A stretch of 64,000 nucleotides of DNA from a virus: the IMG/VR virus record IMGVR_UViG_3300045988_149624. One strand, given 5' to 3'. A program made the translations under genes and the position numbers. The notes beneath the pieces are model-generated. The model made no database searches and was not told where the DNA came from. It saw nothing but the letters and a program-made list of their open reading frames with translations. This document shows positions 7,397 through 57,200 of this stretch, in pieces. Positions within the stretch are counted from its first letter, which is position 1, and each line of letters starts with the position of its first letter.

Positions 7397-7570
7397 ATGG
7401 ATAAAAAACAAGTTAAACCAGAATTTGTCTATGTTGTGGCTATGGAAAGAGTTTTGGAATTACAACAAAACATACTTCTAAAAGAAGCATTAATTAGGCA
7501 ACAAGAAAAGGAAATAGAAAAATTAACAACGTTATTAAATAAAGCGTTAAATGATTCGGAGGTGGAATAA
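7397..7570 (+). CDS. small 57-aa coiled-coil protein (below the ORF-track cutoff)
   Basis: The ATG is preceded by AAGGGAGAGG at 7 nt. It translates as MDKKQVKPEFVYVVAMERVLELQQNILLKEALIRQQEKEIEKLTTLLNKALNDSEVE. Its TAA overlaps the next ATG (TAATG), suggesting translational coupling. Confidence 0.5.
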   Translation: MDKKQVKPEFVYVVAMERVLELQQNILLKEALIRQQEKEIEKLTTLLNKALNDSEVE

Positions 7571-18913: not shown

Positions 18914-21900
18914 ATGCCTACAATAAGAAAATATAATAAAGAAACAGAGAAATATAAAAGAATAGCTACCTCCGATGCGTTGGAGGTGGCTATTTTAGAC
19001 GCAGAAGGAAATTTTGAATCTGATAATGTAGAAGGTGCTTTAAGAGAATTAGGAGACGCTAAGGGGCAAATAGAAGTTAATAGAGGCATTATAGACGCTG
19101 TTAATTCTACTCTTACTGACCATATTAAAAATCACCCAAGTGGTGGGGGTGGCGGAGGCACAATGCCTACTATAAGCACCGACTGGAACGAAACTTCTAT
19201 TGACGGAGATAAAGACTTTACAATTCCTATTTATTTTACATCTCCCAATTTAGGAGAAGGTACTTTATATGTCTTAATTAATAATGTAGAAACATCTATA
19301 CAGACAATTTCTCAAGGTAACAATACTATTAAAATACCTGCTTTAGGGAGTGGTAAAAAAAGACTTTCTATTTATGTAAGAGATAGAGGACAACTTATGT
19401 CTAATCAATTAACATGGGATATTGTTTGTGGTGGTATCAAACTAACTGTAACGATGAACACAGATATAGATTATACTCTTAAAGATAGAATATTATTAAC
19501 TTACAATATAGACTGTGATTTACAAACTGATATAAATACGATTATTACTATTGACGGAACAGAATATACAGTTAAATCCAATAAAGGGTATAACTCTTAT
19601 GAAATTAAGGGTTTAACAGTAGGGGTTCATAAAGTTGAAATATATGCAACCGCTGATGTTTATTCTACTCCTTCTCAAGTATTTAATGTTATAGTTGTTG
19701 CTACAGAACAATTGTTTATAACCTCAACATTTGACACAACTAAACAATATGAAAAGGGTCAGCCTATGAATATTAATTACAGAGTCTCTATAGCAAACAC
19801 AGATTATTATACTATTAATATGTATGTTGATGATTTTGAAAAACCTATTAAGACATTATCTCAACAACCCGGAAACTACTATTGGACTTTTACTCCTGAA
19901 TTTGAGTTAGGAAAACATACTTTAAGAATAGAAGCTTATAACTCTGATAAGAGTAAAACTGCCACATTAGATTTGCCTTTTGAATTAGTTGCTTCTAGTT
20001 ATCAAGCTATGGAATATGTTAGTACAGGTCTAATAGCTTCTTTCAATGCGAAAAATAGAACTAATTCAGATGTTGACAGAGGGTATTGGGTAGACGATAT
20101 AAATGGATATATAGGAAGATTGTATAATTCAAATTATGGTACTAACGGTTGGATAGACGGAGAATTAGTATTAAATGGTAACACATATGTAGAGATTGAT
20201 ATGACTCCTTTTAGTGATAATGTAACTAGAGGATTCACTTTAGACATGGTATTTAGTGTGGAGGATATAGGTAATCCTTTAGCTAGAGTTATAGACTGCA
20301 CAAGTCTTTCTGCTCCTTATCCGGGGCTATATGTTAATCCTTATAAGGCTAATTTGGCTACTGTATCTCATAAGACAGAATTAGATATAGGGCAAGGAGA
20401 AGATATACAGATTACTTTTATGATTGATAGGGTTTCTAAATTTGGTAAGGTATTCATCAACGGAGTATGTTGTGACCCATTCCAATTATCAGATTCATCT
20501 TCTGGTAGCCAAATAATATATGAGCAAATTAAACACGAAGAAAAAATATATTTAAATAGTGAAAAAGGGACAAGTAATTTTGGCTCTTGCAAAATAAAAA
20601 GAATAATGATGTATGAAAGAGAATTATCAGACGAAGAGGTTCTTCAAAATAGAATAGCAGATATGAAAATAGAAGAGCAAGAAGAAGAATATAACAAAAA
20701 CTATAATGATGCTTATATGCCTTGTATGTACATTTATGGAGATATAAGCAATATGACTTTAACAAATAAAAAAGAAGTTAGAATAAAATATGTTTCACCT
20801 AATGCTGATTTATATGGGTCATCTTTTGAATATCCTAGATGTAAAATGTATTGGCAAGGGACTTCTTCTATTCAATATGCTAATAAGAATTTTAATATAG
20901 AACTAGGAGATAGTGACGGAAATCAAGTATTTTATACTCCTTTTAAGAATGGTATTTTAGAATATTTATTCTGTTTAAAATGTAATCAAATGGAATCTTC
21001 TAATGTTATGAATACAGGGTCTGCTATGTTTGTTAATGACAACTTATATGTAGAAAAGAATCCTGCCCAATTAAAGAATGATAAAGTTAGACAGGCTATT
21101 GAAGGTTTCCCTATACTTTTATATATAAATGATGAATTTGTCGGACTGTATGATTTCAACTTAGATAGATATAGTTATCGTTCTTATGGATATAACTTAT
21201 TTGATAAGTGTTTAGCTTATGAAGTATCAGCCAACTCTGACACAACAGCAGGTGCTTTTAATTCTTGGACTTCTTCTAGTGGTAAGACAGAACAAAATTA
21301 TTATGCTTCTGATTTTGAATGTTTATATCCTCCAAGTAGACAAAATGGTAATGACAACTTTGCAGAATTAAAAACATTAGTTGATTTCGTAAGTGGTGCA
21401 GATGAAGATTTATTTAAAGAACAGTTTGATACTTATTTTGATAGACAGTCTGTATTTAGATATTATTTATTTGTACAAGTATTTGGGGGAATAGATTCTC
21501 TGGGAAAAAATATGAAAATAGTTACATTTGATGGTATAAAATGGTATTTGCAAGTATATGACTTAGATAGTTTAATGGGGTTAGACAATACTGGTGCATT
21601 AACGTTTGATGTTGACATAGAAGTTGAAAGTGGAGTATTTAATACATCTAATTCTAAACTATGGAGTAAAATTAGACTTTATTTTGCTAATGAATTAAAA
21701 CAAGAATATATTAATATGAGAAATGGTGTATTCACACTTGAAAATATGTATAAATATTTTTACGATAATCAGATGGATAAAATACCTGTAAGATACTATA
21801 ATAAATCTACTGAATATAAATATTTAAGATTTGGTGCAAAATATTTATATGCCTGTCATGGTAATAGATATTTCCAAATAAAAAGATGGTTAAAAGAAAG

Positions 21901-24900
21901 ATTGTTATATTGTGATACTTTATTCGGATATGAACCTTCTACTTCTAATTTTGTTACTGTTCGTTGTAATAAACAAGGTAAGGTTTCGATGAACATATCG
22001 ACTTATAGTCCTATGTATTTATCTGTAAAATGGAGAGACGAAGCAGATGGCAGCGGAACACAAACATTAAAAATACCTAGAAATAAATCAGTTAAATTTA
22101 GTTATACGATTCCTACTGCTACAGATCAGGAAGTTATTATATATGGGGCAGAATACATCAAGTCTTTAGGAGATTTAAGTACCTGCAATCCAACTCACTT
22201 ACTTTTATCAAATGCTACGAGAATAAATGAGGTAATATGTAGAAACAGTTCAAAATTAGTAAATGCAGAAATAAATGGTTGCAGCTATTTACAAAAAATA
22301 GATTTTAACGGCTGTTCTAATTTAGGTAGTTTAACCAGTTATCAGGTTATGGAATTAGCTACCTGTCAAAACTTGAAATATTTAGATATAAGAGGAACAA
22401 AAATGACAGGGGTAAACTTTGATAATAATGGTGGTAACTTAGAGGAAATATATCTTCCTAAAACAATAACATCATTATACTTGAGAAACCAATATGCTTT
22501 AAAAATTGTAGGTTTGACAAGTGTTAGTTGGTATTCTCCATTTCATACAGAAGCTTTAAGTGGAGCAAGTGATATAACATCATTTACATTAATTAATTGT
22601 CCTTTAGTAGAAAGACTTACTACCCGTTCAGATATAAGTATGAGTGGATGGAATCAAACATTTTATGATTTTAATGGGAATGCAAGGAATGTGGATACAT
22701 TAGGAGATTATGAAGACGCTACTAAGTTTAGAAAGATGGCTCTTTTTGGACTAGGATTATGTAATGCAACTTCTATTCATATAGAAAACAGTATGTTATC
22801 TACTAGATATATGTCTTTTAGATTTAATTATAGACTAGAAGAATTAACATTAAAATACCTACCTAATCTTCAAGAGTTGACTATTGGAGAAACTCAAACA
22901 GGACATAGATGGAATGTAACAGATGATATGTGTGGTTCTTTTGATTTTAATAATATTAATATCACAGAATGTCCTAATATAAAAACATTTAGAATACATC
23001 AATATGATGAGAGACAACCTAAATGGTTTAATAGTGGAACTAATGTAATAGATTTAACTAAGTTTGAAAATCTTGAAACATTTACTTGTAATATTACTAC
23101 TCAAGATTTAAACACGATAATTCTTCCTTCTACATTAAAGATGATATGGATTAAGCCGATGTGTGGATTCTCTAGTACTAATTATCCTAATAATTGTTTA
23201 AAATCAAAATGCACTCTAAAGAATATATATTTTAAGGAAGACCATCCAAACGGATATGAAGGAATAGACTTTGGAAATAGGGAATTAACAGAATTATGTT
23301 TATCTGGGGTAATACAGTCAACAGGAACAATAACTGGGGTAAATACTAAAAATACTTATGTTAGTCCTGTATTTAATAATATGAATGAAAAAGAAAGAGG
23401 TTCTGAATCTTATCCTGAAGTAAAAGTCCAAGGGAAAATAGACTTATCTAATTATGATTGGACGGAAGCATACTGGTGGTTCACAAATGTTAATTTTACT
23501 TCTGATAATTTAGAATTTATTATGCCTAATGACTGGGATTATCTAATAGATACTCGCTTGAAAAGAGTAAGAGGGGTATTCTTTGATTGTACAAACCCAA
23601 ATTTTACTTGGGAATTTGCAGGTAGATTTTTTAAATTATTACAAGACAGAGATGATTTAGGAAAAACATATAAATATGCAACACTTCAAGAACAATCTTC
23701 TTATGAAGAACAGGCAGTTACAATAGAAAATAATTATGATATAGCAGATTATAACTATGGAGACACACCTTTTGTTGGTTCTAATCTTAAATACATTAGA
23801 GAATGTAATTTTAAAGGAAATGCTATAGCATATGGTACTTTCAGAAATTCAAATCTTGTAAAAGTTGGAACAATTACTTGTAGTGGCTCAAATGTATGGT
23901 GGAGTTCCGAAAGTTTATTCCAAAACAGTAAAAACTTAGAAGAAGTAGAGTGTATCAATATGACTGGAGCTAATAGTACTACAAACTGGTTTGCTAGTTG
24001 TCCTAAATTAAAAAGAGTTGGAACAGTAAATGTAAATGCTAAGAATATAAATCAAATGTATGCTTATTGTCCTCAGCTAACAGAATTAGCATTACCTACT
24101 TTAACTAATTTAGAGAGAATGAGTGGGTTTGTTAGAGGGTGCACTTCTTTAACTGAATTACATCTTAATGAAATAACAGAAAACACTCCTTTAGAATATA
24201 TGGACTGGGCATTTAGAGATTGCCCTAATTTAACTTCTGTAACTATTGGAGGAACTACTCTACCCCCAACATTGGTAACAATGGAGGGAGCGTATTATGG
24301 AGATAAAAAGCTTACAAAAGTAATTCCTTTACCTAATGATTTTAGTAATAAATGTAGTATGCGTTCTTGTTGTTATGGTTGTTCTTCATTAACAGATGAT
24401 AATATATATAAAACTCTTCCATATAATGTAAGTAATATGGATTATATTTATTATGCTTGTCATGGATTGACAAATCCGTCTATAGTAGTCAATTCTGACA
24501 GAACAAGTTCTCAATCTTGTTTTGAGGGGTGTGCAAACATAAAATCTGTTAGAGCAGAATTTAATGGTACATATTCTTATGGATTTAATAATTTCTGTAA
24601 TAACTGTGGAGAACTCACAGATGCTTATATTAAATTCCCTTATTCTCTATATTTTAATGATGATGCACAGACTTGCTCTGAAAATGGGAATATATTTGCT
24701 TATTGTAAAAAGCTTATAAACGTAGAGTTGAATATGACTAGATTAGAAAGTAAATCAGATTTTAGAGCAATGTTTAGACAGGATAAATATATAGAATCTA
24801 TAAAAGGATTTGATTTAAGCAATCTTCATAGAGATGATAGAAGACCAAATGATAACGCTTGGTATTTTACTTATGATACATCTTTTGAATTTATGAAGGA

Positions 24901-25120
24901 TTGGGTATTTGCGACAGACGAAAATGGTAATACTAAAAAATTAACAAATTCATATAAGATGTATAATTTAGAATTAACTCCTGCTGCTACTATAGAATCT
25001 CTTATGAATGGGTTAGGAACAGTACAAGCAGAAACATTAACATTAGGTCAAGCAACCTTAAATAGGCTATCGGAAGAACAAAAAGCTAATGCAGTAGCAA
25101 ATGGTTGGACTTTAGCGTAG
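18914..25120 (+). CDS. 2068-aa host-interaction protein: LamG-like + CotH-like + two leucine-rich-repeat regions
   Basis: RBS AAGAGGTGA is present, and PSGGGGGGT forms an N-terminal linker. A LamG-like block (LVLNGNTYVEIDM...GFTLDMVFSV...GKVFINGV...IMMYERELSDEEV) spans about nt 20100-20640. CotH-like motifs (KNFNIEL, FPILLYINDEFVGLYDFNLDR, FRYYLFVQVFGGIDSLGKNMKIVTFDGIKWYLQVYDLDSLMG) span about nt 20700-21630. LRR and BspA-type repeats (CxNLxxLxL, CPxLxxV, CTSLTELHL) span about nt 22030-24600. Confidence 0.8.
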   Translation: MPTIRKYNKETEKYKRIATSDALEVAILDAEGNFESDNVEGALRELGDAKGQIEVNRGIIDAVNSTLTDHIKNHPSGGGGGGTMPTISTDWNETSIDGDKDFTIPIYFTSPNLGEGTLYVLINNVETSIQTISQGNNTIKIPALGSGKKRLSIYVRDRGQLMSNQLTWDIVCGGIKLTVTMNTDIDYTLKDRILLTYNIDCDLQTDINTIITIDGTEYTVKSNKGYNSYEIKGLTVGVHKVEIYATADVYSTPSQVFNVIVVATEQLFITSTFDTTKQYEKGQPMNINYRVSIANTDYYTINMYVDDFEKPIKTLSQQPGNYYWTFTPEFELGKHTLRIEAYNSDKSKTATLDLPFELVASSYQAMEYVSTGLIASFNAKNRTNSDVDRGYWVDDINGYIGRLYNSNYGTNGWIDGELVLNGNTYVEIDMTPFSDNVTRGFTLDMVFSVEDIGNPLARVIDCTSLSAPYPGLYVNPYKANLATVSHKTELDIGQGEDIQITFMIDRVSKFGKVFINGVCCDPFQLSDSSSGSQIIYEQIKHEEKIYLNSEKGTSNFGSCKIKRIMMYERELSDEEVLQNRIADMKIEEQEEEYNKNYNDAYMPCMYIYGDISNMTLTNKKEVRIKYVSPNADLYGSSFEYPRCKMYWQGTSSIQYANKNFNIELGDSDGNQVFYTPFKNGILEYLFCLKCNQMESSNVMNTGSAMFVNDNLYVEKNPAQLKNDKVRQAIEGFPILLYINDEFVGLYDFNLDRYSYRSYGYNLFDKCLAYEVSANSDTTAGAFNSWTSSSGKTEQNYYASDFECLYPPSRQNGNDNFAELKTLVDFVSGADEDLFKEQFDTYFDRQSVFRYYLFVQVFGGIDSLGKNMKIVTFDGIKWYLQVYDLDSLMGLDNTGALTFDVDIEVESGVFNTSNSKLWSKIRLYFANELKQEYINMRNGVFTLENMYKYFYDNQMDKIPVRYYNKSTEYKYLRFGAKYLYACHGNRYFQIKRWLKERLLYCDTLFGYEPSTSNFVTVRCNKQGKVSMNISTYSPMYLSVKWRDEADGSGTQTLKIPRNKSVKFSYTIPTATDQEVIIYGAEYIKSLGDLSTCNPTHLLLSNATRINEVICRNSSKLVNAEINGCSYLQKIDFNGCSNLGSLTSYQVMELATCQNLKYLDIRGTKMTGVNFDNNGGNLEEIYLPKTITSLYLRNQYALKIVGLTSVSWYSPFHTEALSGASDITSFTLINCPLVERLTTRSDISMSGWNQTFYDFNGNARNVDTLGDYEDATKFRKMALFGLGLCNATSIHIENSMLSTRYMSFRFNYRLEELTLKYLPNLQELTIGETQTGHRWNVTDDMCGSFDFNNINITECPNIKTFRIHQYDERQPKWFNSGTNVIDLTKFENLETFTCNITTQDLNTIILPSTLKMIWIKPMCGFSSTNYPNNCLKSKCTLKNIYFKEDHPNGYEGIDFGNRELTELCLSGVIQSTGTITGVNTKNTYVSPVFNNMNEKERGSESYPEVKVQGKIDLSNYDWTEAYWWFTNVNFTSDNLEFIMPNDWDYLIDTRLKRVRGVFFDCTNPNFTWEFAGRFFKLLQDRDDLGKTYKYATLQEQSSYEEQAVTIENNYDIADYNYGDTPFVGSNLKYIRECNFKGNAIAYGTFRNSNLVKVGTITCSGSNVWWSSESLFQNSKNLEEVECINMTGANSTTNWFASCPKLKRVGTVNVNAKNINQMYAYCPQLTELALPTLTNLERMSGFVRGCTSLTELHLNEITENTPLEYMDWAFRDCPNLTSVTIGGTTLPPTLVTMEGAYYGDKKLTKVIPLPNDFSNKCSMRSCCYGCSSLTDDNIYKTLPYNVSNMDYIYYACHGLTNPSIVVNSDRTSSQSCFEGCANIKSVRAEFNGTYSYGFNNFCNNCGELTDAYIKFPYSLYFNDDAQTCSENGNIFAYCKKLINVELNMTRLESKSDFRAMFRQDKYIESIKGFDLSNLHRDDRRPNDNAWYFTYDTSFEFMKDWVFATDENGNTKKLTNSYKMYNLELTPAATIESLMNGLGTVQAETLTLGQATLNRLSEEQKANAVANGWTLA

Positions 25121-35944: not shown

Positions 35945-36874
35945 ATGAATAAACTAATTGAGTTTTTCAATGAAAAATACGGAGACAAATATGGGAAGAT
36001 TCCTTATCCAAGAACAACAATGCAGATATATAGAGTATATCAGTCTATAAAAAGTTATGGGATAAAGGATGAAGAGTTAGTTAAATTGTTACATAATATT
36101 AAATTACCTAAACCAAAATCTATAGAAGAAAAAGAGTTATATACAGATTGTTTATACAACAAAGATGATAGTGAGATGGTAATAGATACAAGTAATTTAA
36201 TTTCTAAAGAAAACCCTGTATTTACTGGTAGTATGAGTATGAATAGGAAAGAAGGGGCAACTATAGGAGAATATAGCGTTGCTATCGGGAAAACTGTTGA
36301 AGCGTCAGGAGAATGTTCTTATGCAGAAGGTAAGAATACAACTGCTAGTGGATGGAGTTCTCATGCAGAAGGAGAGGAAACGAAAGCTAAGGGGCAAACT
36401 TCCCACGCAGAAGGAGATAATTCAATCGCTGAAGGCATAAGTTCCCACGCAGAAGGCAGTTATGCAGTTGCCAGTGGAATAACTTCTCATGCAGAAGGAG
36501 AGGGAACAAAAGCTTATGGAAAATCATCTCATGCAGAAGGTAGTTTTACAACTGCCTCTTCAAATTATCAACACGTTCAGGGTAAATATAATATAGAAGA
36601 TAAAAGTAATAAATATGCCCATATAGTTGGTAATGGTAAAAGTGGTATGGAAAGAAGTAATGCACATACATTAGACTGGGAAGGTAATGGTTGGTATGCT
36701 GGTAAATTATCTCAAGAAGGTACGCCTACCGAAGATAAAGATTTAGTTACTAAAAAATATGCAGATGCTTCTTTAGAAAATAAAGTAGATAAATCTCAAT
36801 TATCATTTAATTCTGACGGAGAACTTGTTGTAACTATAGATGGAATTAGTAAAACATTCGTACCTAAAGCCTAA
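35945..36874 (+). CDS. 309-aa tail fibre with shared N-terminal module and Hep_Hag-type heptad repeats
   Basis: Family N-terminus is MNKLIEFFNEKYGDKYGKIPYPRTTMQIYRVYQSIKSYGIKDEELVKLLHNIKLPKPKS. NPVFTGSMS is followed by SSHAEGEETKAKGQTSHAEGDNSIAEGISSHAEGSYAVASGITSHAEGEGTKAYGKSSHAEG. NAHTLDWEGNGWYAGKLSQEGTPTEDKDLVTKKYAD is also present. Confidence 0.8.
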   Translation: MNKLIEFFNEKYGDKYGKIPYPRTTMQIYRVYQSIKSYGIKDEELVKLLHNIKLPKPKSIEEKELYTDCLYNKDDSEMVIDTSNLISKENPVFTGSMSMNRKEGATIGEYSVAIGKTVEASGECSYAEGKNTTASGWSSHAEGEETKAKGQTSHAEGDNSIAEGISSHAEGSYAVASGITSHAEGEGTKAYGKSSHAEGSFTTASSNYQHVQGKYNIEDKSNKYAHIVGNGKSGMERSNAHTLDWEGNGWYAGKLSQEGTPTEDKDLVTKKYADASLENKVDKSQLSFNSDGELVVTIDGISKTFVPKA

Positions 36875-36906: not shown

Positions 36907-36935
36907 TTGACAACGTTATTACAAAGTAATATAAT
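36907..36935 (+). promoter_or_regulatory. consensus sigma-A-type promoter
   Basis: TTGACA (36907-36912), an exact 17-nt spacer, then TATAAT (36930-36935). The spacer sequence resembles that of the minus-strand promoter family. Confidence 0.75.
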
Positions 36936-36962
36936 ATTCTTATAAGATTGGAGGATATTAAA

Positions 36963-37016
36963 ATGAATAATAAAAAAATGATAAAAGAAATACTAAAGAA
37001 AATATTGAAGGCATAA
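36963..37016 (+). CDS. 17-codon ORF (MNNKKMIKEILKKILKA) between a consensus promoter and a terminator
   Basis: GGAGGA lies 7 nt upstream of the ATG. The peptide is basic and amphipathic. The unit is closed by the terminator at 37097. It may be coding or may be part of a small RNA. Confidence 0.35.
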   Translation: MNNKKMIKEILKKILKA

Positions 37017-37096
37017 TTTTTAAATATAATAAATATTTTAATATATAAATGCGAATAATATAGATAAGTTATTCTATTTGTATTATTTATGGATTA

Positions 37097-37130
37097 CCCT
37101 CTAGTCTTATGGCTAGGGGGTTGTTTTTAT
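37097..37130 (+). terminator. rho-independent terminator
   Basis: CCCTCTAG-8 nt-CTAGGGGG (one G.U pair) is followed by TTGTTTTTATTT. Confidence 0.65.
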
Positions 37131-37228: not shown

Positions 37229-37246
37229 ATGATATGGAGGGTTAAT

Positions 37247-38167
37247 ATGAATAATGTAAGTATATGCAGTGCTGACATAGGCAATATCACAAGTATCTTC
37301 ATGGGAGATAAAAGTAGTGACATTTTAATAATTGAAAGTAGAATAGAAAAATATTCTACGATTAAAGAACTTGGAGATAATGAAATATTTGAAACAGATG
37401 AAAAATGGATAGTAAATCAAGGAGAATTTAAAAACGAACATTTAAAATTTAAAAAAGATAACTTCTTTAATTTACTTTATTATGGATTGGCTAAAGTAAG
37501 TAAAAATAATAGAATCAAACTTGTATTAGGAATTCCCGCAGGACAATATAATGAATACAGTCAGGAATTAAAAGCATTAATAAAACAAAATAATATGAAA
37601 AAGATAACTCTTGGATCAGGTAAAGATAGAGGAACTAGAACAATTTATATTGAAGATGTGATAATTCGTCCTGAAAGCTATGGAATTAAAAATTTAAAGT
37701 CCGTAAATAAGGCACAAGTAGAAGCAAAAACTCTTATCGTAGATATAGGTGGAGGAACAACAGATATAGCTATATTTAATGAGAAGAATAAATTTATAGA
37801 CGGAGAATCTTTAGACATAGGACTATTAGAGTTATATCATAATGTAAAGAAGTATATCTCTATGAAATATTGTAAGATTAGTCTTGAAGATGCTAAAAAA
37901 GTATTTGACGGAGAAATTAAAATGATTAATATACAAGATTATTCTTTTCTTAAAGAGTTCCAAGATGACTTTATGAATAAATTATTAAATGAATTTAAGG
38001 GGAGTTTCCCAAGTGCTATTTCATGTAATTTAATTCTTGCAGGGGGTGGGGGAGAAATAGGTATCGACTACTTTAAGGAAGAATATCCTCAAACTATTTT
38101 AGTAAATGATATTGGAGTAAATGCAAAAGCCTTTCGTTTAATGGGGTTAAAGAAATGGCAAAAATAA
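37247..38167 (+). CDS. parM: actin-like segregation ATPase (ParM/Alp family)
   Basis: ATG 37247 has GGAGGG 5 nt upstream. Phosphate-1-like motif is CSADIGNITS, phosphate-2 motif is LIVDIGGGTTDIAIF, and the adenosine-type motif is LILAGGGGEIG. Its size and its pairing with a small RHH gene fit a type II partition locus. Confidence 0.75.
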   Translation: MNNVSICSADIGNITSIFMGDKSSDILIIESRIEKYSTIKELGDNEIFETDEKWIVNQGEFKNEHLKFKKDNFFNLLYYGLAKVSKNNRIKLVLGIPAGQYNEYSQELKALIKQNNMKKITLGSGKDRGTRTIYIEDVIIRPESYGIKNLKSVNKAQVEAKTLIVDIGGGTTDIAIFNEKNKFIDGESLDIGLLELYHNVKKYISMKYCKISLEDAKKVFDGEIKMINIQDYSFLKEFQDDFMNKLLNEFKGSFPSAISCNLILAGGGGEIGIDYFKEEYPQTILVNDIGVNAKAFRLMGLKKWQK

Positions 38168-38445
38168 AAGAGATTAGAATTAGATTTTATGAAAATGAAA
38201 TAGCACTATATGACTATGTAATCTCTAAAAGAAGTGCATCAGGGTTTCTTAAAGATTTAGCAGAAGTAGAAAGGAAACGTGAACAAAATTATGTAAACAA
38301 CAATATAAATATAGATATGTTATTGGGGAAAATAGCAGGATTAAATACTTCTAATAGTATACAAAAATCTTCTCAAATAGAAAATGAAGTAGAGAATAAT
38401 TTAGACGATTTTATAGATAATTTTGATGATGAGTTTGATGATTGA
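38155..38445 (+). CDS. parR: ParR-like ribbon-helix-helix adaptor with acidic C-terminus
   Basis: It overlaps the parM end by 13 nt. The N-terminus KEIRIRFYENEIALYDYVISK has a beta-strand-helix pattern. The C-terminal tail DDFIDNFDDEFDD is acidic, as in ParM-interacting adaptors. Confidence 0.55.
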   Translation: MAKIKEIRIRFYENEIALYDYVISKRSASGFLKDLAEVERKREQNYVNNNINIDMLLGKIAGLNTSNSIQKSSQIENEVENNLDDFIDNFDDEFDD

Positions 38446-38470
38446 CAAACTGTTTACAATATTGTATAAT
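38442..38470 (+). promoter_or_regulatory. consensus sigma-A-type promoter with extended -10
   Basis: TTGACA (38442-38447), a 17-nt spacer, then TATAAT (38465-38470) preceded by TG. The -35 box overlaps the parR stop codon. Confidence 0.75.
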
Positions 38471-38577: not shown

Positions 38578-38859
38578 ATGGAGGAAAGAAATCCTTATGA
38601 ACTCCCTATTGTTCCTCGACAACATCAGATTAAAGTAGAGGAAGCTAGAGAATTAAGGCTTATTGATTTATTTATTGATGAAGGGAATCACGAGAAGCAA
38701 CTAAGTAGAGCAGACCTTATACTTATTTATTCCCTATATGAAGATGGATTAAAGGAATTTTTAGATGATTATTTGGACTATGTAGAGAGAGAAGTAGACA
38801 CAAAGGGATATAAAGTTGTTAATAAACCTCACTTCTATCTCAAATCAACAGTAGGATAA
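38578..38859 (+). CDS. 93-aa acidic hypothetical protein (monocistronic unit)
   Basis: ATG 38578 has AAAGGAGGA 7 nt upstream. The gene sits between a consensus promoter plus long 5' hairpin and a strong terminator. No motif was recognised. Confidence 0.6.
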   Translation: MEERNPYELPIVPRQHQIKVEEARELRLIDLFIDEGNHEKQLSRADLILIYSLYEDGLKEFLDDYLDYVEREVDTKGYKVVNKPHFYLKSTVG

Positions 38860-38890
38860 TCACTCTTAGTAGGGTGATTATTTTTTTTTA
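38857..38890 (+). terminator. rho-independent terminator
   Basis: TAATCACTC-TTAGTA-GGGTGATTA forms a 9-bp stem followed by T9. Confidence 0.8.
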
Positions 38891-38960
38891 TATATTTTTA
38901 ATAAAAAGTGTAATATTTTCCATACTTTTTCATATAATGAAGTAAAAGGAGGGAAAAATA

Positions 38961-39140
38961 ATGAAAGGAAATAAAACAGTTATACCTGTAAGTTTTAAAA
39001 ATAATATGGAGGATAAATTACTATTCTCTTGGTTAGAAGATAAATTCGAAGAATATGGTAATAAAAGTAATTATATAAAATATATTTTAAGAAAACAAAT
39101 GTTATCTGAATCAAATCAATTTACTCAAAAGGTCAAATAA
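38961..39140 (+). CDS. 59-aa ribbon-helix-helix-like protein (below the ORF-track cutoff)
   Basis: AAAAGGAGGG lies 8 nt upstream. MKGNKTVIPVSFKNNMEDKLLFSWLEDKFEEYGNKSNYIKYILRKQM has the beta-strand plus two-helix pattern of CopG/Arc-type proteins. Confidence 0.55.
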   Translation: MKGNKTVIPVSFKNNMEDKLLFSWLEDKFEEYGNKSNYIKYILRKQMLSESNQFTQKVK

Positions 39141-39178
39141 CATTGCAAGTCCAAACCAAAATAAAGCTTCATTCATTT

Positions 39179-39207
39179 TTGTCACCTCGGTTATTCATAA
39201 TTATATT
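39179..39207 (+). promoter_or_regulatory. possible promoter for the membrane-protein/ATPase genes
   Basis: TTGTCA (39179-39184), a 17-nt spacer, then TATATT (39202-39207). Confidence 0.35.
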
Positions 39208-39238
39208 ATTAGTGTTAACTAAAAGGAGGATATTATAC

Positions 39239-39619
39239 ATGAAATCTTATACTTTCAAGGAATATAGACAAATGACAGAGAATAAATGTACAGTTGTAGA
39301 AAAATGCTTAAATGTTTTAAAGAAAAATAAAAAAGAATATAAAAAGATGGTTATACTAATAGCAATACTAATGCACAAAGGATTATTTTGTTATGCAGCT
39401 ACTACGGAAGCAGAAATATCTAATGTAGCAACACAAATCTTAAACCTGCTAATGATATTTGCACGATATGGATGTATGTGTATGGGCATAAAAAGTATTA
39501 TAGAAAATGCATTACAAGGAGCGAACTTCCGTCAAGCTACTAATTCAGGTGTTCAATATTTTTTAATCTATATACTTTTAACATTCTACCCAAAATTATT
39601 CACAATGATTAAATTATAG
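39239..39619 (+). CDS. 126-aa secreted/membrane protein (signal-like segment + two hydrophobic helices; VirB2/TrbC-like topology)
   Basis: ATG 39239 has AAAAGGAGGA upstream. MVILIAILMHKGLFCYAATTEAE looks like a signal peptide with an A-A-T site. Hydrophobic stretches ILNLLMIFARYGCMCMGI and VQYFLIYILLTFYPKLF follow. Confidence 0.55.
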   Translation: MKSYTFKEYRQMTENKCTVVEKCLNVLKKNKKEYKKMVILIAILMHKGLFCYAATTEAEISNVATQILNLLMIFARYGCMCMGIKSIIENALQGANFRQATNSGVQYFLIYILLTFYPKLFTMIKL

Positions 39620-39630
39620 GAGGGTTTATT

Positions 39631-39903
39631 ATGGAAGAGAAAATAGATAAATTAATAGGTGTCATGGATAAACTGACAGATATAGGAGATAATCTTTTAC
39701 ATCCGATAGAATTTCTACAAGAAGCTGGTTATAAACTATTAGTAGCCATACAAGATTATTCATTTAATATATGTCTAGTCGCAGGATTTATTGCTCTTAT
39801 ATTATATGTGTTCGGTTATGACAAAGGAAAACGTTGGGCGTTTGTTATACCTTGCATATATTTAATTTTAAATATTATAGTAGGAGTCCTTACAAATGCT
39901 TAA
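39631..39903 (+). CDS. 90-aa membrane protein (two C-terminal TM helices)
   Basis: RBS TAGGAGGG is present. TM segments are FNICLVAGFIALILYVFGY and WAFVIPCIYLILNIIVGVL. Its stop overlaps the next ATG by 8 nt, suggesting coupling. Confidence 0.6.
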   Translation: MEEKIDKLIGVMDKLTDIGDNLLHPIEFLQEAGYKLLVAIQDYSFNICLVAGFIALILYVFGYDKGKRWAFVIPCIYLILNIIVGVLTNA

Positions 39904-42148
39904 AAGTATACCTATCTCAAAGTATTTTGAGATTAAAAATCAAGAATATATATATTTAAAATTAATCCCAACAAAATCTATCAGAAATAATCGAACATTT
40001 TCAATTCTATATCTTGTGAATAAGATGTTTGTAAACTTAAATAACCTTATACAAATCGAAAATAAAAAAGTTATTCTAAAAACACAATTCAAAGCAAGTT
40101 ATTATATACACATCACAAATGATAAAATTAATTTTTATTTTATCGTACCTAAATTATTCTATTCTAAATTCAAAGTTAAATTCAAAGAAATATGGAAGTC
40201 TGTAGAGATAAAAGAAGTTGATAATATTCCTTTAATAGAAGGCGGATCTAAATATCAACTTGTCTATAAAAATAGAGACTTTTTATCTAGCGATACAGAT
40301 ATGAGAAATAATGATTTATTAAATGCAAATATGAATGTAATTGAATTACTTCAAGATGAAGAAGAGGCAGGGATATTTTATAACTTCATTCCTGTATCAG
40401 AAAAGCAATCAAATTATTTTAGAGCATCTTGTCAAAAGTTTATAAAAGAATACAGAAACACTTCTGTCAAATATACTTCAAATAAAATGATGAATATTGT
40501 TATTAAGATATTAGATTTTACTGTGGATTTTTTTAATTCAACTTTAGACTTAATGTTTGGAGTTAAACAAAATAAATCAGAAAAAGTTGTTAATTTTGAT
40601 TCTTTAAGTAACAATACTTTAAAAAAGGGAATGAGTGATTTATGCAAAACCCAAATCCTAATTTCTACAAAAGGAGAAAATAAGAGAAGAGATAAGATTA
40701 TAGCAGATGCTATTGTTGGTTCTTATGGAGAAATAAAAGATGATAATGAATTTATATGTAGGAGAGTGAAAAAAGAAATGGATATTTTGAAACCTGTGTT
40801 AAGCAATATTAATCAATTAAATACATCTGTACTTGAATGTAGTAATTTTATTGCACTTCCGGGAGAAGAATTAATTCAACAATTCCCTAATATAGAACAT
40901 AATAGTGTATATAATAAAAAATTCCCTAGATGTTTGGCTAATGGTGATATACTTATAGGAACATCTTTAAAGAATGAACCTATCTATTATTCTACAGATA
41001 AAGAATTAAGCCGTCTAGGAAGGATTCTAATGGGTGGTATGGGTTGTGGTAAAACTTACTACATGACAAACCTTGCTAAATCTATAATAGCTAAAGGAGA
41101 TGGATTAGTAGTATTAGATATTATTAGAGATTGTAGTCTGTCAGAAACCATAAAAAGGGTAATTCCTAAAGATAGGCTTATAGAAATTGATTGCAGTAAT
41201 TATAATCAACTACAAGGATTCTGTTTTAATGAATTAACTTGTGATGATAGTGAGGATAAATATAAGAAATTAGCTAAATGTATGGAAAAGGCTACACAAT
41301 TACACATCTTATTAAACACTATTAATGCAGATACTAAATTAACTCCTAGAATGCTAAGATATTTTTATTCTGCTTGTACGGTAGCCTTTTATAAAAATTT
41401 TAATGCCAGTTTTAAAGATATAATAGGTATACTTATGTATCCTAATGCAAGAAGAAAAGCCTTAGAATGGCTTACAGAAGGTCAAAAAAAATTACTTGAA
41501 GATGAAATAAACGATTTAAGTGAGTTAGATAAAGAAAATAAAGATGGGGAAGTGGAAAATTACGATAGCAAGATAGATGGCATAATAGATAGAGTGAGCT
41601 TATTAAAAACTAATTTATATACTAAACTAGCCTTCAATAAGTCAGCAGAAGAGAATATAAATTTTGTGAAAGCATTAGATGAAAATAAAGTTATATTAAT
41701 AAAGGCTAGAGAAGAGGATTTTACTAACAGAAATATAAGAGACTTAATTGCTACATTTTATTTAAGTAAAGTTTGGTTGTCAAAACAAATCAGTTCAAAT
41801 ACTAGAACAGAAATATTCTTTGATGAAATCAATCTATTTCCAACGGCACAGACAATTCTTCAAGATATATTAACTGAATGTAGAAAGTATTCTTTTATAC
41901 CTACGATATCTTTACACTTCTTAAATCAATGTAATAAAAAATGCAAAGACGCAATTTTGAGCAGCGGTTGCAGTTTTATCCTCCTTGCAGGAGCTGATGT
42001 AAAGTGTTTTGAAGAACTAAGGGGATTATTCTATAAAGAAGGGTATACAGAGACGGATATGCTTAATTTGAAGCGATTTCATGCATTGTGTTTAATCAGA
42101 AATGAAGAGAAAGGATATTCGGCATTTATTGTAAAGTTGCCAAAATAA
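39896..42148 (+). CDS. 750-aa P-loop ATPase of the VirB4/VirD4/HerA/FtsK superfamily
   Basis: Walker A is GGMGCGKTYYM, followed by GLVVLDIIRD. Walker B is EIFFDEINLF, about 255 aa downstream. The C-terminus CRKYSFIPTISLHFLNQ...SSGCSFILLAG has the R-K...Q pattern of T4SS/HerA-type ATPases. I could not assign the N-terminal ~370 aa. Confidence 0.6.
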   Translation: MLKSIPISKYFEIKNQEYIYLKLIPTKSIRNNRTFSILYLVNKMFVNLNNLIQIENKKVILKTQFKASYYIHITNDKINFYFIVPKLFYSKFKVKFKEIWKSVEIKEVDNIPLIEGGSKYQLVYKNRDFLSSDTDMRNNDLLNANMNVIELLQDEEEAGIFYNFIPVSEKQSNYFRASCQKFIKEYRNTSVKYTSNKMMNIVIKILDFTVDFFNSTLDLMFGVKQNKSEKVVNFDSLSNNTLKKGMSDLCKTQILISTKGENKRRDKIIADAIVGSYGEIKDDNEFICRRVKKEMDILKPVLSNINQLNTSVLECSNFIALPGEELIQQFPNIEHNSVYNKKFPRCLANGDILIGTSLKNEPIYYSTDKELSRLGRILMGGMGCGKTYYMTNLAKSIIAKGDGLVVLDIIRDCSLSETIKRVIPKDRLIEIDCSNYNQLQGFCFNELTCDDSEDKYKKLAKCMEKATQLHILLNTINADTKLTPRMLRYFYSACTVAFYKNFNASFKDIIGILMYPNARRKALEWLTEGQKKLLEDEINDLSELDKENKDGEVENYDSKIDGIIDRVSLLKTNLYTKLAFNKSAEENINFVKALDENKVILIKAREEDFTNRNIRDLIATFYLSKVWLSKQISSNTRTEIFFDEINLFPTAQTILQDILTECRKYSFIPTISLHFLNQCNKKCKDAILSSGCSFILLAGADVKCFEELRGLFYKEGYTETDMLNLKRFHALCLIRNEEKGYSAFIVKLPK

Positions 42149-42186: not shown

Positions 42187-42280
42187 GCAATGGACATTTA
42201 TATGTGCCTATATGAATAATTCGTATAGGTTAATTAACCCAAAATAAGAGTTGAAATATCTCCAACTCTTATTTTTTTTT
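42187..42280 (+). ncRNA. candidate ~95-nt small RNA (promoter-to-terminator unit with no credible ORF)
   Basis: It lies downstream of the promoter at 42152. It contains the hairpin CCTATA-N11-TATAGG (42207-42229) and the palindrome GGTTAATTAACC (42228-42239). The terminator AAGAGTTG-N9-CAACTCTT plus T9 spans 42242-42280. The only ORF has 9 codons and no RBS. Confidence 0.35.
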
Positions 42281-42491
42281 ATACATTTTTATGTAATTTT
42301 ATTTATTTTTATATACTTTTAAAAAAGGGGCGTATTTCACCTAAATTGCTATAACCGATATGAACATTCCGCATATATTTCAGTTAGCTATTTTATAGCT
42401 ATTACATATATGCTACATATATCATAGCATATGCAAATTGGTATTAAAAATATTCCAATTTAACAAAGTTTTAATAATTTTAATAATGTTG

Positions 42492-54227: not shown

Positions 54228-57200
54228 TTATGCTACTTCAAAATCTGTAATATAATAATCAACAATATTGTTTTTCTTTCTTTTCTTAGGGATAAACCCA
54301 TATAAATATAACACCTCTCCCATTACAAATGGGCATTGGTTATATAATTGCTTATCCATTTTAAATATTTTTGCATTTCCACTATAGAAACAAAACAATT
54401 CAACTTCAATATTATATTTAAAGATTTTTAAATCAGATATAAAACAAGCATTTTTATCCATTTGTTTATAAGCTACTTTGTTAAATCCACCTGTATATTC
54501 TATTTCGTTTTTTATTAATTCTATAACATCATCTTCTACATCTTCTAAAGATAATTCTACATCTCTTATGAATGAATGATAGTCCATATTTAAGACTTTG
54601 GCAGTCTCTTTAGTTGCATTTCTTTCTGCTAATTCCTTATAAGTCATATATAATTCAATATCTTTAGTTTTAGACATTGTTTTTTTATTACCTTTATCTT
54701 TATATAATTCAAATACTTTAAGAAGTTTGCTTATACAACCAAATTCAGAAAAATATCCTAATTTAATTAAAATTTCAAGACATCTATTACCTATTTCTTT
54801 AGTATCAAATAATACATCTGTAAAGGTTTCGTATTTTTTACTTTGACTTAATTCATATAATATATTAGCTTTTTGTCCATTTAGATATTTAATAGAGCCG
54901 ACACCTTTATATATTGTATTAGTTTCTTTATTGAAGAAATATTCTGCTTTAGAATACCCAAATTTAGGAGATTGTAATTTAATACCAAGTAACTTTGCTA
55001 ATTTTTCTCCATTAACAAAGTCTTCATTATTGGCTGCATTATTTAAGTAGGCACAAGTAAACTCTAGTGGATAATAATATCTTAAATAAGCACAGTAATA
55101 TCCTATCATAGAATACCCTGTAGCATGATTTTTACCAAATTGATAGTTGGCTGAATCTTCTATTATTTGTAAAAATTCTTGTGCTTCTTTTTCAGCTACA
55201 TCTCTTGGTTTATTTGATTTAGAACAATATCCTTCTAATATTTGTGGCATAGCTTTTTCTAGTCTATCTCTTTGTTTTCTTCCTATCGCCCTTCTTATAT
55301 TATCTGCATCTGACCCACTTAAACCACATATATCTTGAAGAAACGCTATGGTGTCTTCTTGAAAAACAAGATATCCATTATTTTGTTTTAATAAATTATC
55401 TATGATTTCAGATGGGTTTTTGTTAGGAATTCCTGCAATTAAATTATCTCTATAACTTTCACCACTAGGACGAAGACTTGCATTAACTAGATTCATGTCA
55501 TTTATTCTATGAGGATTAAATTGTCTTAATAATTTATTAGCATAATCACTTTCAAATTGAAATATACCATAGGGATATTTAACCATGTCTTCCCATACAT
55601 TATCATCATTAAAATCTATATTATATGACTTAGGATATGGAATATTTGCATATTCACAGCAATCTTTTATTATTCCAATATTTTTTAATCCTAAAATATC
55701 ATATTTTACTAAAGATACTTCATGAACTTCTTCCATGTCAATTTGTAATATCTTCATTCCGTCCTTCCAAAACGTACCATAATTATCTGTCAAGGTTACT
55801 GGACTTGCTACAATACCCGCAGGATGAACTGATTGAGATACAACTGAATTTAAAATTCCATCAAAGTAATAAAATAACTCACTATATTTCAACCTTGTTT
55901 CTTCGGGATTTTCTTCATATTCTTCTTTTATTATCTTTACTTGGTCTAAAGAATATGGAGATTCTAAACCCTTGTCTTTATATTTTTTATCTAAGGCTCT
56001 GCCTATATCATCTATTGTCCCTTTATCTGATACAGTTCCTATAGATAATATATATGCCGTTTTCTCTTGTCCAAATCTGTTAATTATATAATTATAAACA
56101 AGCTCCCTTTGATCAGGTGAGAAATCTACATCTATATCCCCAATTTCTAACCTATCTTCATTTGCAAATCTTGAGAATATAGTTCCCCATCTAATTGGGT
56201 CAACATCTGTAATACCTATTATATAAGCTAATGTACTTCCTCCGACCGACCCTCTGCAAGGGCAAGTCGGGATATTATTTTTTTCACACCACTCCATCAT
56301 TTCGCTCATAAACAACATAAATGATATCATATTAAGTTTTTTAAATACTCTTAATTCTTCTTTTAAATTTTCCTTATACTTTTCATTGTTTCCATCAATT
56401 ATTCCTCTATCTACTTTATCTTTATACATTTTTTCAATTCTATCTATCAAAGTTTTTTCATCATCTTTACTAAGTATAGGATATTTAAAAGATGTATCTA
56501 GCTTAATTTCTTCACACATATCTGCTATTTTATTAGTATTTTCTATCGCTTCTAATACTACATCCATAGGTAAACAATTTTGTTCTTTAAACATTTTTAC
56601 TAATTCTTCATAGCTTTTAAATGTTAAATCAAAAGTGTCTTCATTAGAAAATGTTATATTTTTAGATAATTGTCTAATATATCTGCATTCAGCTTTATAT
56701 TCATTTATACTATGTGTATCTGTTCCTACTATAAGAGGCTTGTTGTATTTTTTTGATAATTTATATAGTTTTCTATTAAATTCTTTTTGTTCTTCACAAT
56801 TATGATATTGTATTTCAAAAAAGTCATAATGTTTTGCTAACTTATCATAATATGGGTTACCTTCGTCAAGTTTCTGTAAAGGACTCGCCAAACAGGCTGA
56901 TGTTTTTATTATATTATCAGATATATTTAAAAATTCATCAAATGAGATTCTATTTTTATAATATACATGAGAAGGATGAGTTGATAAGTCTAATAAAGTA
57001 TGCAATTCTTTTAATCCTTCTTGATTTTTTGCTAATAATACAGTGTGGTAATTATCTCTTATTTTTTCATCTAGCGTTTCAGTTAAATATACTTCGCACC
57101 CATGAATATATTTAATTCCTTTTTCTTTACAATATAAAAACCTTTCTATCCATTTATAAACATTTCCGTGATTAGTACAAGCAATAGCCTTCATATTATA

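Follow-up and report, generated by a model that had tools for sequence, protein, structure and literature searches.

Two phage gene sets are the closest described counterparts of the four-gene cassette (g1 to g4) considered here, which lies at positions 38961-42148 of a 64-kb stretch of viral DNA (IMG/VR record IMGVR_UViG_3300045988_149624; the whole stretch is called the window). In SPP1, gp31, gp31.1 (three transmembrane (TM) segments), gp31.2 (two TM segments) and gp32 (836 aa) were described in silico; gp32 is non-essential, HHpred likens its C-terminus to TrwB, VirB4 and FtsK, and a trans-membrane translocon was suggested for the cassette, with its role left unassigned (Godinho 2018, PMC6316719). 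In 0305phi8-36, orf200-207 were described as a 'DNA translocation operon' comprising a relaxase, a TM-less coupling-type ATPase, membrane proteins and a ParM/MreB-like protein; deletion of the operon left plaque growth unaffected, and similar operons were noted in SPO1, GBSV1 and others (Pathria 2012, PMC3357382). Such genes were first noticed in 2012 and 2018, and in our literature search no later study of the function of SPP1 gp32 or related proteins came up.

The window cassette shares with that of SPP1 the order and sizes of the genes (a small basic protein, a ~120-aa protein with three hydrophobic segments, a ~105-aa 2-TM protein and a ~800-aa TM-less ATPase), the overlap of the ATPase gene with the gene before it, and homology of the ATPases over their full length. 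Unlike the SPP1 genes, to which identity is only about 20%, it forms a unit of its own with a sigmaE-like motif, is carried by a clostridial phage-plasmid and adjoins ParMR. The four genes are laid out in this way also in the SPP1-like phage 049ML003; its ATPase, gp40, shares 98.9% identity with gp32 and matches g4 directly (8e-11). The 0305phi8-36 operon likewise includes, in the same order, an ATPase (orf201), a pilin-like protein (orf204), a protein resembling ribbon-helix-helix (RHH) proteins (orf206) and a ParM-like protein (orf207). The operons of 0305phi8-36, SPO1 (gp27.3-27.9), CP-51 and Tsamsa add a Replic_Relax relaxase, the multi-TM orf203 or an M23 peptidase, whereas the window has none of these; because SPP1 also has no relaxase, an adjacent one is not required for the core cassette. 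Both marks of the gp32-orf201-type cassette (PHROG 5156) are thus present in the window, full-length ATPase homology and the order of the three small genes, and homology to SPP1 gp31-gp32 and to the core of the 0305phi8-36 operon, judged from sequence comparison, is well supported. The view that the cassette has no described counterpart, taken in an earlier sequence-only reading of the window, is therefore given up (PMC6316719, PMC3357382).

That the cassette is a minimal module derived from a type IV secretion system (T4SS), one of a family, known from phages and plasmids, that was noticed before and never characterised, is well supported, and we read it as a T4SS-derived translocon, probably used in sporulating cells. 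The best explanation, to which we give about an even chance, is a self-contained operon for a minimal T4SS-derived machine that moves DNA or protein in the sporulating mother cell. The operon and its signals are as follows.

38961-39140, + strand: g1, 59 aa
39239-39619, + strand: g2, 126 aa, start ATG at 39239
39631-39903, + strand: g3, 90 aa
39896-42148, + strand: g4, 750 aa
38911-38938, + strand: candidate mother-cell-type (sigmaE-like) promoter, TAATATT (38911-38917), 13 nt, CATATAAT (38931-38938)
38853-38893, + strand: intrinsic terminator 5' of the cassette (hairpin 38853-38884), 14-bp stem and U-run, ending the unit of the upstream gene g0
42241-42284, + strand: intrinsic terminator 3' of the cassette (hairpin 42241-42275), 13-bp perfect stem, 9-nt loop and U-run

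Inspection of the open reading frames (ORFs) placed all four genes on the + strand between 38961 and 42148, as tightly linked as the earlier reading had described them, with a gap of 11 nt between g2 and g3 and an overlap of 8 nt between g3 and g4. They make up a discrete transcription unit because they are bracketed by two strong terminator hairpins with U-runs. The upstream hairpin has a folding energy of -14.5 kcal/mol (z -5.4; 0 of 200 shuffles fold equally well) and the downstream one -14.8 kcal/mol (z -6.2); at the latter both GC skew and coding strand flip. The ATG at 39239 is preceded by a strong ribosome-binding site (AAAGGAGGA), and the g2 counterpart in a 99%-identical relative (L007) has 126 aa, matching this start. 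The TTG at 39143, the start given in the ORF list, was rejected, having no ribosome-binding site.

The cassette is conserved as a unit, the point on which the earlier reading had asked for a survey of gene neighbourhoods: the same gene order was found in more than 15 divergent loci. The succession of a small basic protein, a ~130-aa pilin-like protein, a ~65-140-aa 2-TM protein and the ATPase is present in phiCp-D, TPDSL_ph2, LY5 and the SPP1-like phages, and also in ~57-kb C. botulinum phage-plasmids and ten metagenomic lineages. With g4 as query, tblastn gave full-length homologues of ~30% identity in Clostridium phage phiCp-D and Terrisporobacter phage TPDSL_ph2, and others in many Bacillus phages; blastp gave 8e-11 for SPP1-type gp32, 2e-18 for Tsamsa and 1e-20 for CP-51, with LY5 within the range 8e-11 to 1e-20. 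A profile built without 0305phi8-36 matched its orf201 over the full length (E=2e-59). The unit is maintained across elements whose ATPases share just 20-30% identity. In L019, which is 66% identical, g1-g4 are retained and the upstream genes differ; because L019 keeps the four genes outside the ParMR context, ParMR is not part of the unit. Partition genes often adjoin the cassette in relatives, either ParM or, in L030, TubZ, and in the large Bacillus phages the operon is extended by genes for a Replic_Relax relaxase and for an M23 peptidase.

Some relatives have peculiarities of their own. The partition pair of L030, at 2340-3741 and ~2 kb upstream of the cassette, is of the Tubulin/TubZ type and replaces ParMR. 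In Tsamsa (L003, from ~10176 onward) and CP-51 (L005, 8965-9609) a phage sigma-factor gene lies ~2-4 kb downstream of the homologous operon. In pCLJ (L027, 8594-12178) and other 150-270-kb toxin plasmids of C. botulinum and C. sporogenes, the copy consists of a pilin-like protein (the one with the best TrbC match) and the ATPase, followed by a 199-aa ORF that looks by eye like a winged-helix, Replic_Relax-like protein and has no Pfam match. The ATPase homologue of phiCp-D (L001, 6974-9389) is annotated as two coding sequences of 179 and 631 aa that overlap at 7494-7513; the gene may be truly split, or a frameshift or sequencing error may account for this. A 91%-identical relative (L038, CALEJY010000250.1) sits on an 81.6-kb contig of a metagenome-assembled genome (MAG) labelled Candidatus Melainabacteria and is most likely a mis-binned phage contig. 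A single-protein scan of genomes returned 2 MAG contigs only, and a nucleotide search of the phage database with the window returned nothing.

The ATPase g4 has no TM segment, and structure modelling predicts a soluble two-domain ATPase, both of whose domains are VirB4-like by fold. Its two domains and catalytic motifs are these.

39896-40990, + strand: g4 N-terminal domain (aa 1-365), VirB4-N-domain-like
40991-42148, + strand: g4 C-terminal RecA-type ATPase domain with helical insertion, Walker A and B motifs and conserved R519 and R566
41048-41053, + strand: Walker A G385/K386, in the C-domain
41822-41827, + strand: Walker B D643/E644, in the C-domain

A family of unknown function, phrog_5156, covers g4 residues 6-748 (E=2.4e-78). 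The AlphaFold2 (AF2) model of full-length g4, built on 102 diverse homologues, has a predicted local distance difference test score (pLDDT) of 91.5. In a Foldseek search of the PDB with this model, full-length chains of R388 TrwK/VirB4 ranked first (E=1.6e-14, ~900 aligned columns), followed by TrwB (C-domain only, E=6e-12) and then HerA (E=1e-10); the highest TM-score was to the C-domain of Thermoanaerobacter VirB4 (4ag5/4ag6, TMt 0.66-0.67). Modelled alone, residues 1-365 gave a pLDDT of 89.4, and the top 13 PDB matches of this domain were all R388 TrwK/VirB4, with E from 1e-4 to 2e-2 (best 1.1e-4), the rest being unrelated. The ~370 N-terminal residues had earlier been said to match nothing recognisable; at the level of fold they now have a probable identity as a VirB4 N-domain. 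G385/K386, D643/E644, R519, R566 and, in the N-domain, K244 and E314 are invariant or nearly so across the 102 ATPase homologues.

By sequence, g4 stays remote from named families. Nothing exceeded threshold in Pfam, NCBIfam or PADLOC, where the sub-threshold matches were AAA_14, TrwB_AAD_bind at the P-loop (16.7 bits, cut-off 20.5), SXT_TraD and mad8, and a Pfam scan of 49 members of the ATPase family gave only sub-threshold TrwB_AAD_bind and generic AAA matches. A phmmer search of PDB sequences with g4 gave only noise, and the family profile produced weak P-loop-level matches there (TrwB, DotL, HerA, DptH). The same profile did not match TcpF, TcpA or TcpB of pCW3, so that at the level of sequence nothing ties the family to the VirB4 or coupling proteins of Gram-positive systems. 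Relatedly, the distant ATPase P0199 (L030/L031) has a precomputed match graded 'faint' to Pfam DUF8128 (PF26449), which g4 itself does not match; DUF8128 may be of recent date and related to the present ATPase family.

The small proteins are consistent in varying degree with a VirB2-VirB3-VirB4 arrangement, the likeness that the sequence-only reading had pointed out. It stands for g4 by fold and probably for g2, by layout and by sub-threshold matches in relatives; for g3, where no VirB3 match was found, it is not demonstrable. The sequence of g2 runs from a basic leader of ~36 aa through a signal-peptide-like segment ending in CYA/ATTE to a hydrophobic helix and short polar loop that come after a conserved Gly, and then to a second hydrophobic helix with a conserved Pro. 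Its hydropathy and charge pattern fit the out-TM-in-TM-out layout of pilins of 50-150 aa, with the middle helix under the hydropathy threshold used, and suggest a propilin of the VirB2/TrbC/TcpD type. Homologues of g2 occur in phiCp-D and TPDSL_ph2 (E about 1e-5). Proteins in the g2 position of other relatives matched pilin models below threshold: that of pCLJ matched TrbC at 1.5e-5 (25.5 bits, gathering threshold 27.9) and T4SS_pilin at 0.018, those of CP-51 and 0305phi8-36 (orf204) matched T4SS_pilin at 1.2e-3 and 9.7e-4, and that of the SPP1-like phage matched TrbC at 0.086. Gram-positive T4SSs employ such pilins, assembled on VirB6 (bioRxiv 10.64898/2025.12.18.695078).

The third protein, g3, has an acidic N-terminal tail and a C-terminal 2-TM hairpin with the loop GYDKGKRW. 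From Clostridium to SPP1 the basic loop keeps the motif G(F/Y)(K/D)KGxK, and the M23 peptidase protein gp259 of Tsamsa ends in this hairpin motif too. Because of the acidic tail and the basic loop between the TM segments, the positive-inside rule predicts an N-out topology, unlike that of VirB3, whose termini are cytoplasmic. Through the 8-nt overlap g3 is translationally coupled to g4, and it resembles VirB3 in position and ATPase coupling only. The first protein, g1, is basic and shows a strand-helix-GxS-helix (RHH-like) pattern that is kept across its family, where an alignment of 18 sequences gives (I/V)x(V/L)SFK..D..LY.F(L/V)...G.S.YIK.LI..D. The ParR-like ORF at 38155-38445 aligns with the g1 family, and both give weak matches to phrog_4223. 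Profile searches of the family against PDB and Pfam, and hhalign comparison with CopG and Arc, were not significant, which leaves the earlier naming of g1 as an RHH protein a matter of pattern. It probably regulates the operon or serves as a DNA adaptor.

Purifying selection acts on each of the four genes, given dN/dS (the ratio of nonsynonymous to synonymous substitution rates) of 0.04-0.18 per gene against relatives 88-99% identical (0.08-0.14 for g1).

Host range provides the first link to sporulation. In tblastn searches of 50,697 phage records, four members of the family matched 65 records (window g4), 104 (0305phi8-36 orf201), 107 (SPP1-type gp32, that is, 049ML003 gp40) and 70 (Tsamsa gp257). 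All matching records belonged to phages of Bacillus, Geobacillus, Lysinibacillus, Brevibacillus, Alicyclobacillus, Clostridium or Terrisporobacter, apart from one Microcystis record. Phages of Staphylococcus, Streptococcus, Lactococcus, Listeria and Enterococcus are well sampled and should be numerous in the collection, and none is among the matches. Full-length structural matches in BFVD came from Bacillus phages only, and the 36 full-length matches in PLSDB from Clostridium and Bacillus plasmids; 37 of the 38 PLSDB plasmids with a homologue are typed non-mobilizable. Across these searches the family thus occurs almost only in elements of endospore-forming Bacillota, which is new here, and because of this near-confinement it tracks endospore formation rather than phylogeny alone.

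The promoter region provides the second. The candidate promoter ends 22 nt before the start of g1; no sigmaA-type -35 element was found upstream of g1, and the neighbouring units, unlike the cassette, carry perfect sigmaA promoters. Both boxes are kept in L019, L021 and L025, where spacer and flanks vary. Two exact copies of the pattern lie in the window, where 0.05 would be expected; the other one, AATATT-N13-CATATAAT at 55620-55646 (- strand), lies within the Pol III alpha gene and may be a chance occurrence or an internal sporulation-type promoter. The canonical -10 boxes of the mother-cell sigma factors of C. difficile are CATATAAT and CATATTAT, with -35 elements ATA (sigmaE) and AC (sigmaK) (PMC3789822). 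The candidate at 38911-38938 agrees with a -10 box CATAnnnT that has ATA or AC as its -35 at 15-17 nt. Eleven independent clostridial lineages were searched for the pattern (AC-N15-17 or ATA-N15-16)-CATANNNT within the 100 nt that precede the first gene of the cassette. With spacer ranges chosen post hoc, the motif was present in 7 of the 11, where dinucleotide-preserving shuffles gave 0.62 on average; none of 5000 shuffles reached 7 lineages (maximum 5), and among upstream regions of control ORFs 5.8% had the motif. Such enrichment of a mother-cell-type motif upstream of the clostridial copies is also new here, and the cassette has, at the level of motif, a candidate sigmaE/sigmaK-like promoter.

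The distribution among spore-formers, the mother-cell-type promoters, the relaxase and partition neighbours and the dispensability for lytic growth jointly make a role in sporulating cells the likeliest. Complex formation, substrate, timing of expression and direction of transport, as we infer them, would be as follows. The ATPase g4 would act as a VirB4-type enzyme, by analogy as a hexamer; g3, made together with it, probably tethers it to the membrane. The propilin g2 would be the substrate that the VirB4-type ATPase extracts from the membrane to build a tube or channel, while g1 would regulate the operon or mark DNA. The resulting small, ATP-driven conduit would move the DNA of the element (or protein) across a membrane and secure its passage into the forespore or its escape from the doomed mother cell. 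A more specific version, which we hold possible and still unlikely, makes the cassette a T4SS-derived device for 'intracellular conjugation', carried by phages and phage-plasmids whose hosts form endospores. Induced by mother-cell sigma factors, this device, with its VirB2-like pilin, 2-TM anchor, VirB4-like ATPase and RHH DNA adaptor, would take the genome of the element either into the forespore, through the sporulation septum or the engulfment membranes, or out of the doomed mother cell. If true, it would explain the carriage of elements in spores (virospores).

Several observations weigh against a T4SS-derived translocon of the sporulating mother cell. SPP1 is virulent and has its cassette genes in the early unit PE5 (PMC6316719), so that sporulation-specific expression is not universal, and deletion or disruption of the homologous genes in SPP1 and 0305phi8-36 had no lytic-growth phenotype (PMC6316719, PMC3357382). 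The spacer ranges of the promoter pattern were fixed after inspection of the data, the strict B. subtilis sigmaK consensus fits just 2 lineages, and no consistent mother-cell motif was found upstream of the Bacillus operons. Curated VirB4 models (CagE_TrbE_VirB and AAA_10 of Pfam; the NCBIfam VirB4 families) matched neither g4 nor 49 relatives, and the TM-scores of the g4 N-domain to TrwK/VirB4 are low (0.31-0.35). In classical T4SSs, VirB4 is not the DNA-coupling ATPase. No Pfam model, TrbC (PF04956) and T4SS_pilin (PF18895) included, matched g2, and VirB3, PrgI and TcpE models matched none of 10 g3-position proteins. Finally, no relaxase, coupling protein or VirB6-like polytopic protein was found within the 64-kb window.

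The surroundings of the cassette agree with its earlier placement between the partition and replication modules, ParM/ParR upstream and minus-strand replication genes downstream. The upstream features, which provide context and lie outside the unit, are these.

37229-38167, + strand: ParM-like gene (ALP_N, phrog_691)
38155-38445, + strand: ParR-like gene
38578-38859, + strand: g0, a 93-aa ORF
36907-36935 and 38442-38470, + strand: perfect sigmaA-type promoters (TTGACA-17-TATAAT) of the upstream ParM/ParR and g0 units

Downstream, the minus strand encodes dUTPase, RecU, NrdD/G, Dam methylase, a beta-CASP nuclease, Pol III alpha, primase and DnaB. The absence of a relaxase, coupling protein, VirB6 or wall hydrolase near the cassette, already remarked on in the sequence-only reading, held up: three phage relaxases used as tblastn queries gave nothing below E=0.36 in the window, T4SS family matches and polytopic VirB6-like proteins were found neither in the window nor within 10 kb of the cassette in L007, and the sole wall hydrolase in the window is the phage endolysin, ~11 kb upstream of the cassette. 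An Rfam scan of the window gave no match. A strong terminator-like hairpin (37096-37121, 6 GC pairs) lies ~160 nt after the sigmaA promoter at 36907-36935 and before the parM start at 37229; the region 36907-37130 could be a short transcript, a leader or a centromere region. Further upstream, a protein of 309 aa (35945-36874, + strand) has YadA-head repeats, as in trimeric adhesins, and is probably a fibre or adhesin ending the structural module. Within that module, the L007 counterpart of a 2068-aa protein (18914-25120, + strand) has a precomputed CotH (spore-coat kinase-like) Pfam domain, which is a second sporulation-flavoured feature of the same phage.

Other explanations are less well supported than the one centred on sporulation. 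A device akin to conjugation that spreads the phage-plasmid genome directly from cell to cell, in vegetative or biofilm cells, an idea that originates with Pathria et al. (PMC3357382), would suit the T4SS-like components and the relaxase genes that adjoin the ATPase in 0305phi8-36, CP-51 and Tsamsa. A relaxase, a coupling protein, VirB6 and a dedicated wall hydrolase are, however, all absent from the window, nearly all of the homologue-bearing plasmids (37 of 38) are typed non-mobilizable, and pCLJ has a separate bona fide T4SS; this idea also leaves the restriction to spore-formers and the type of promoter unexplained, and we consider it distinctly unlikely. Slightly less probable again is a superinfection-exclusion or defence module, in which a membrane ATPase would block the entry or replication of rival phages or plasmids, as the earlier reading had entertained. 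Accessory positions such as that between the lysis genes and integrase in TPDSL_ph2, dispensability for lytic growth, early expression in SPP1, the weak PADLOC match mad8 (E=4.9e-5, 21 bits), the presence of HerA/FtsK-type ATPases in defence systems and the HerA structures among the fold matches would all fit. Yet no PADLOC-DB 2.0 model matched convincingly, the small proteins giving only noise, and a VirB4-type N-domain with a pilin-like partner is not found in known HerA defence systems; moreover, the cassette is also present in strictly virulent phages, and its relaxase and partition associations and mother-cell-type promoter would go unexplained.

Segregation of the plasmid-prophage is a third function to be weighed, with an FtsK-like pump that would join ParMR or TubZR in clearing or positioning the copies as cells divide. 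The cassette adjoins ParM/ParR in the window, CP-51, Tsamsa, 0305phi8-36 and L037, and TubZ in L030, and g1 resembles ParR; but L019, the SPP1-like phages, LY5 and TPDSL_ph2 have no partition genes with the cassette, the fold of g4 is nearer to VirB4 than to FtsK, and the pilin-like protein would have no role, so that we give a segregation accessory little probability. The earlier suggestion of a remnant conjugation locus is hardly credible for a non-functional relic: most T4SS components are indeed absent from the window, but selection on all four genes is strongly purifying (dN/dS 0.04-0.18) and the unit is conserved at 20-30% ATPase identity. Purifying selection together with the invariant or nearly invariant catalytic residues excludes decay.

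The proposed translocon of sporulating cells touches model phages (SPP1, SPO1, CP-51), plasmids of C. botulinum and C. tetani, and abundant gut phage-plasmids of Peptostreptococcaceae, all of which carry the cassette. Three leads, namely ATPase domains that both appear VirB4-like, a family that appears confined to elements of spore-formers and candidate mother-cell-type promoters in the clostridial copies, turn an orphan module into a testable hypothesis of how phage and plasmid genomes may enter spores or leave sporulating cells. Tractable systems are at hand in B. subtilis with SPP1 or SPO1.

Among known systems other than the phage cassettes, the cassette may be compared with the VirB2-VirB3-VirB4 segment of T4SSs (TrwL/TrwM/TrwK of R388; PrgF/PrgI/PrgJ; TcpD/TcpE/TcpF of pCW3), with which it shares gene order and sizes, the predicted two-domain VirB4-like fold of g4 and the propilin layout of g2, whose conserved Gly and Pro are shared by pCW3 TcpD in an alignment. 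Unlike these systems, it has no sequence match of g4 to VirB4, TcpF or AAA_10 and no VirB3 signal in g3, and it is accompanied by no VirB6, VirB8, hydrolase, coupling protein or relaxase. The fold predicted for the g4 C-domain is also like that of TrwB/VirD4 and of HerA/FtsK. Unlike the coupling proteins (VirD4, TrwB, TcpA), g4 has no N-terminal TM anchor, no above-threshold model and no adjacent relaxase, and its N-domain matches VirB4 only, not the HAS barrel of HerA or the domains of FtsK. In sporulating cells, transport between mother cell and forespore is served by the SpoIIIE pump and the SpoIIIA-SpoIIQ channel, the latter with secretion-system-like parts and a LytM/M23 domain. With these we claim no homology; the likeness is one of function, ATP-driven transport between mother cell and forespore, and the M23 domain of Tsamsa gp259 may be compared with that of the channel.

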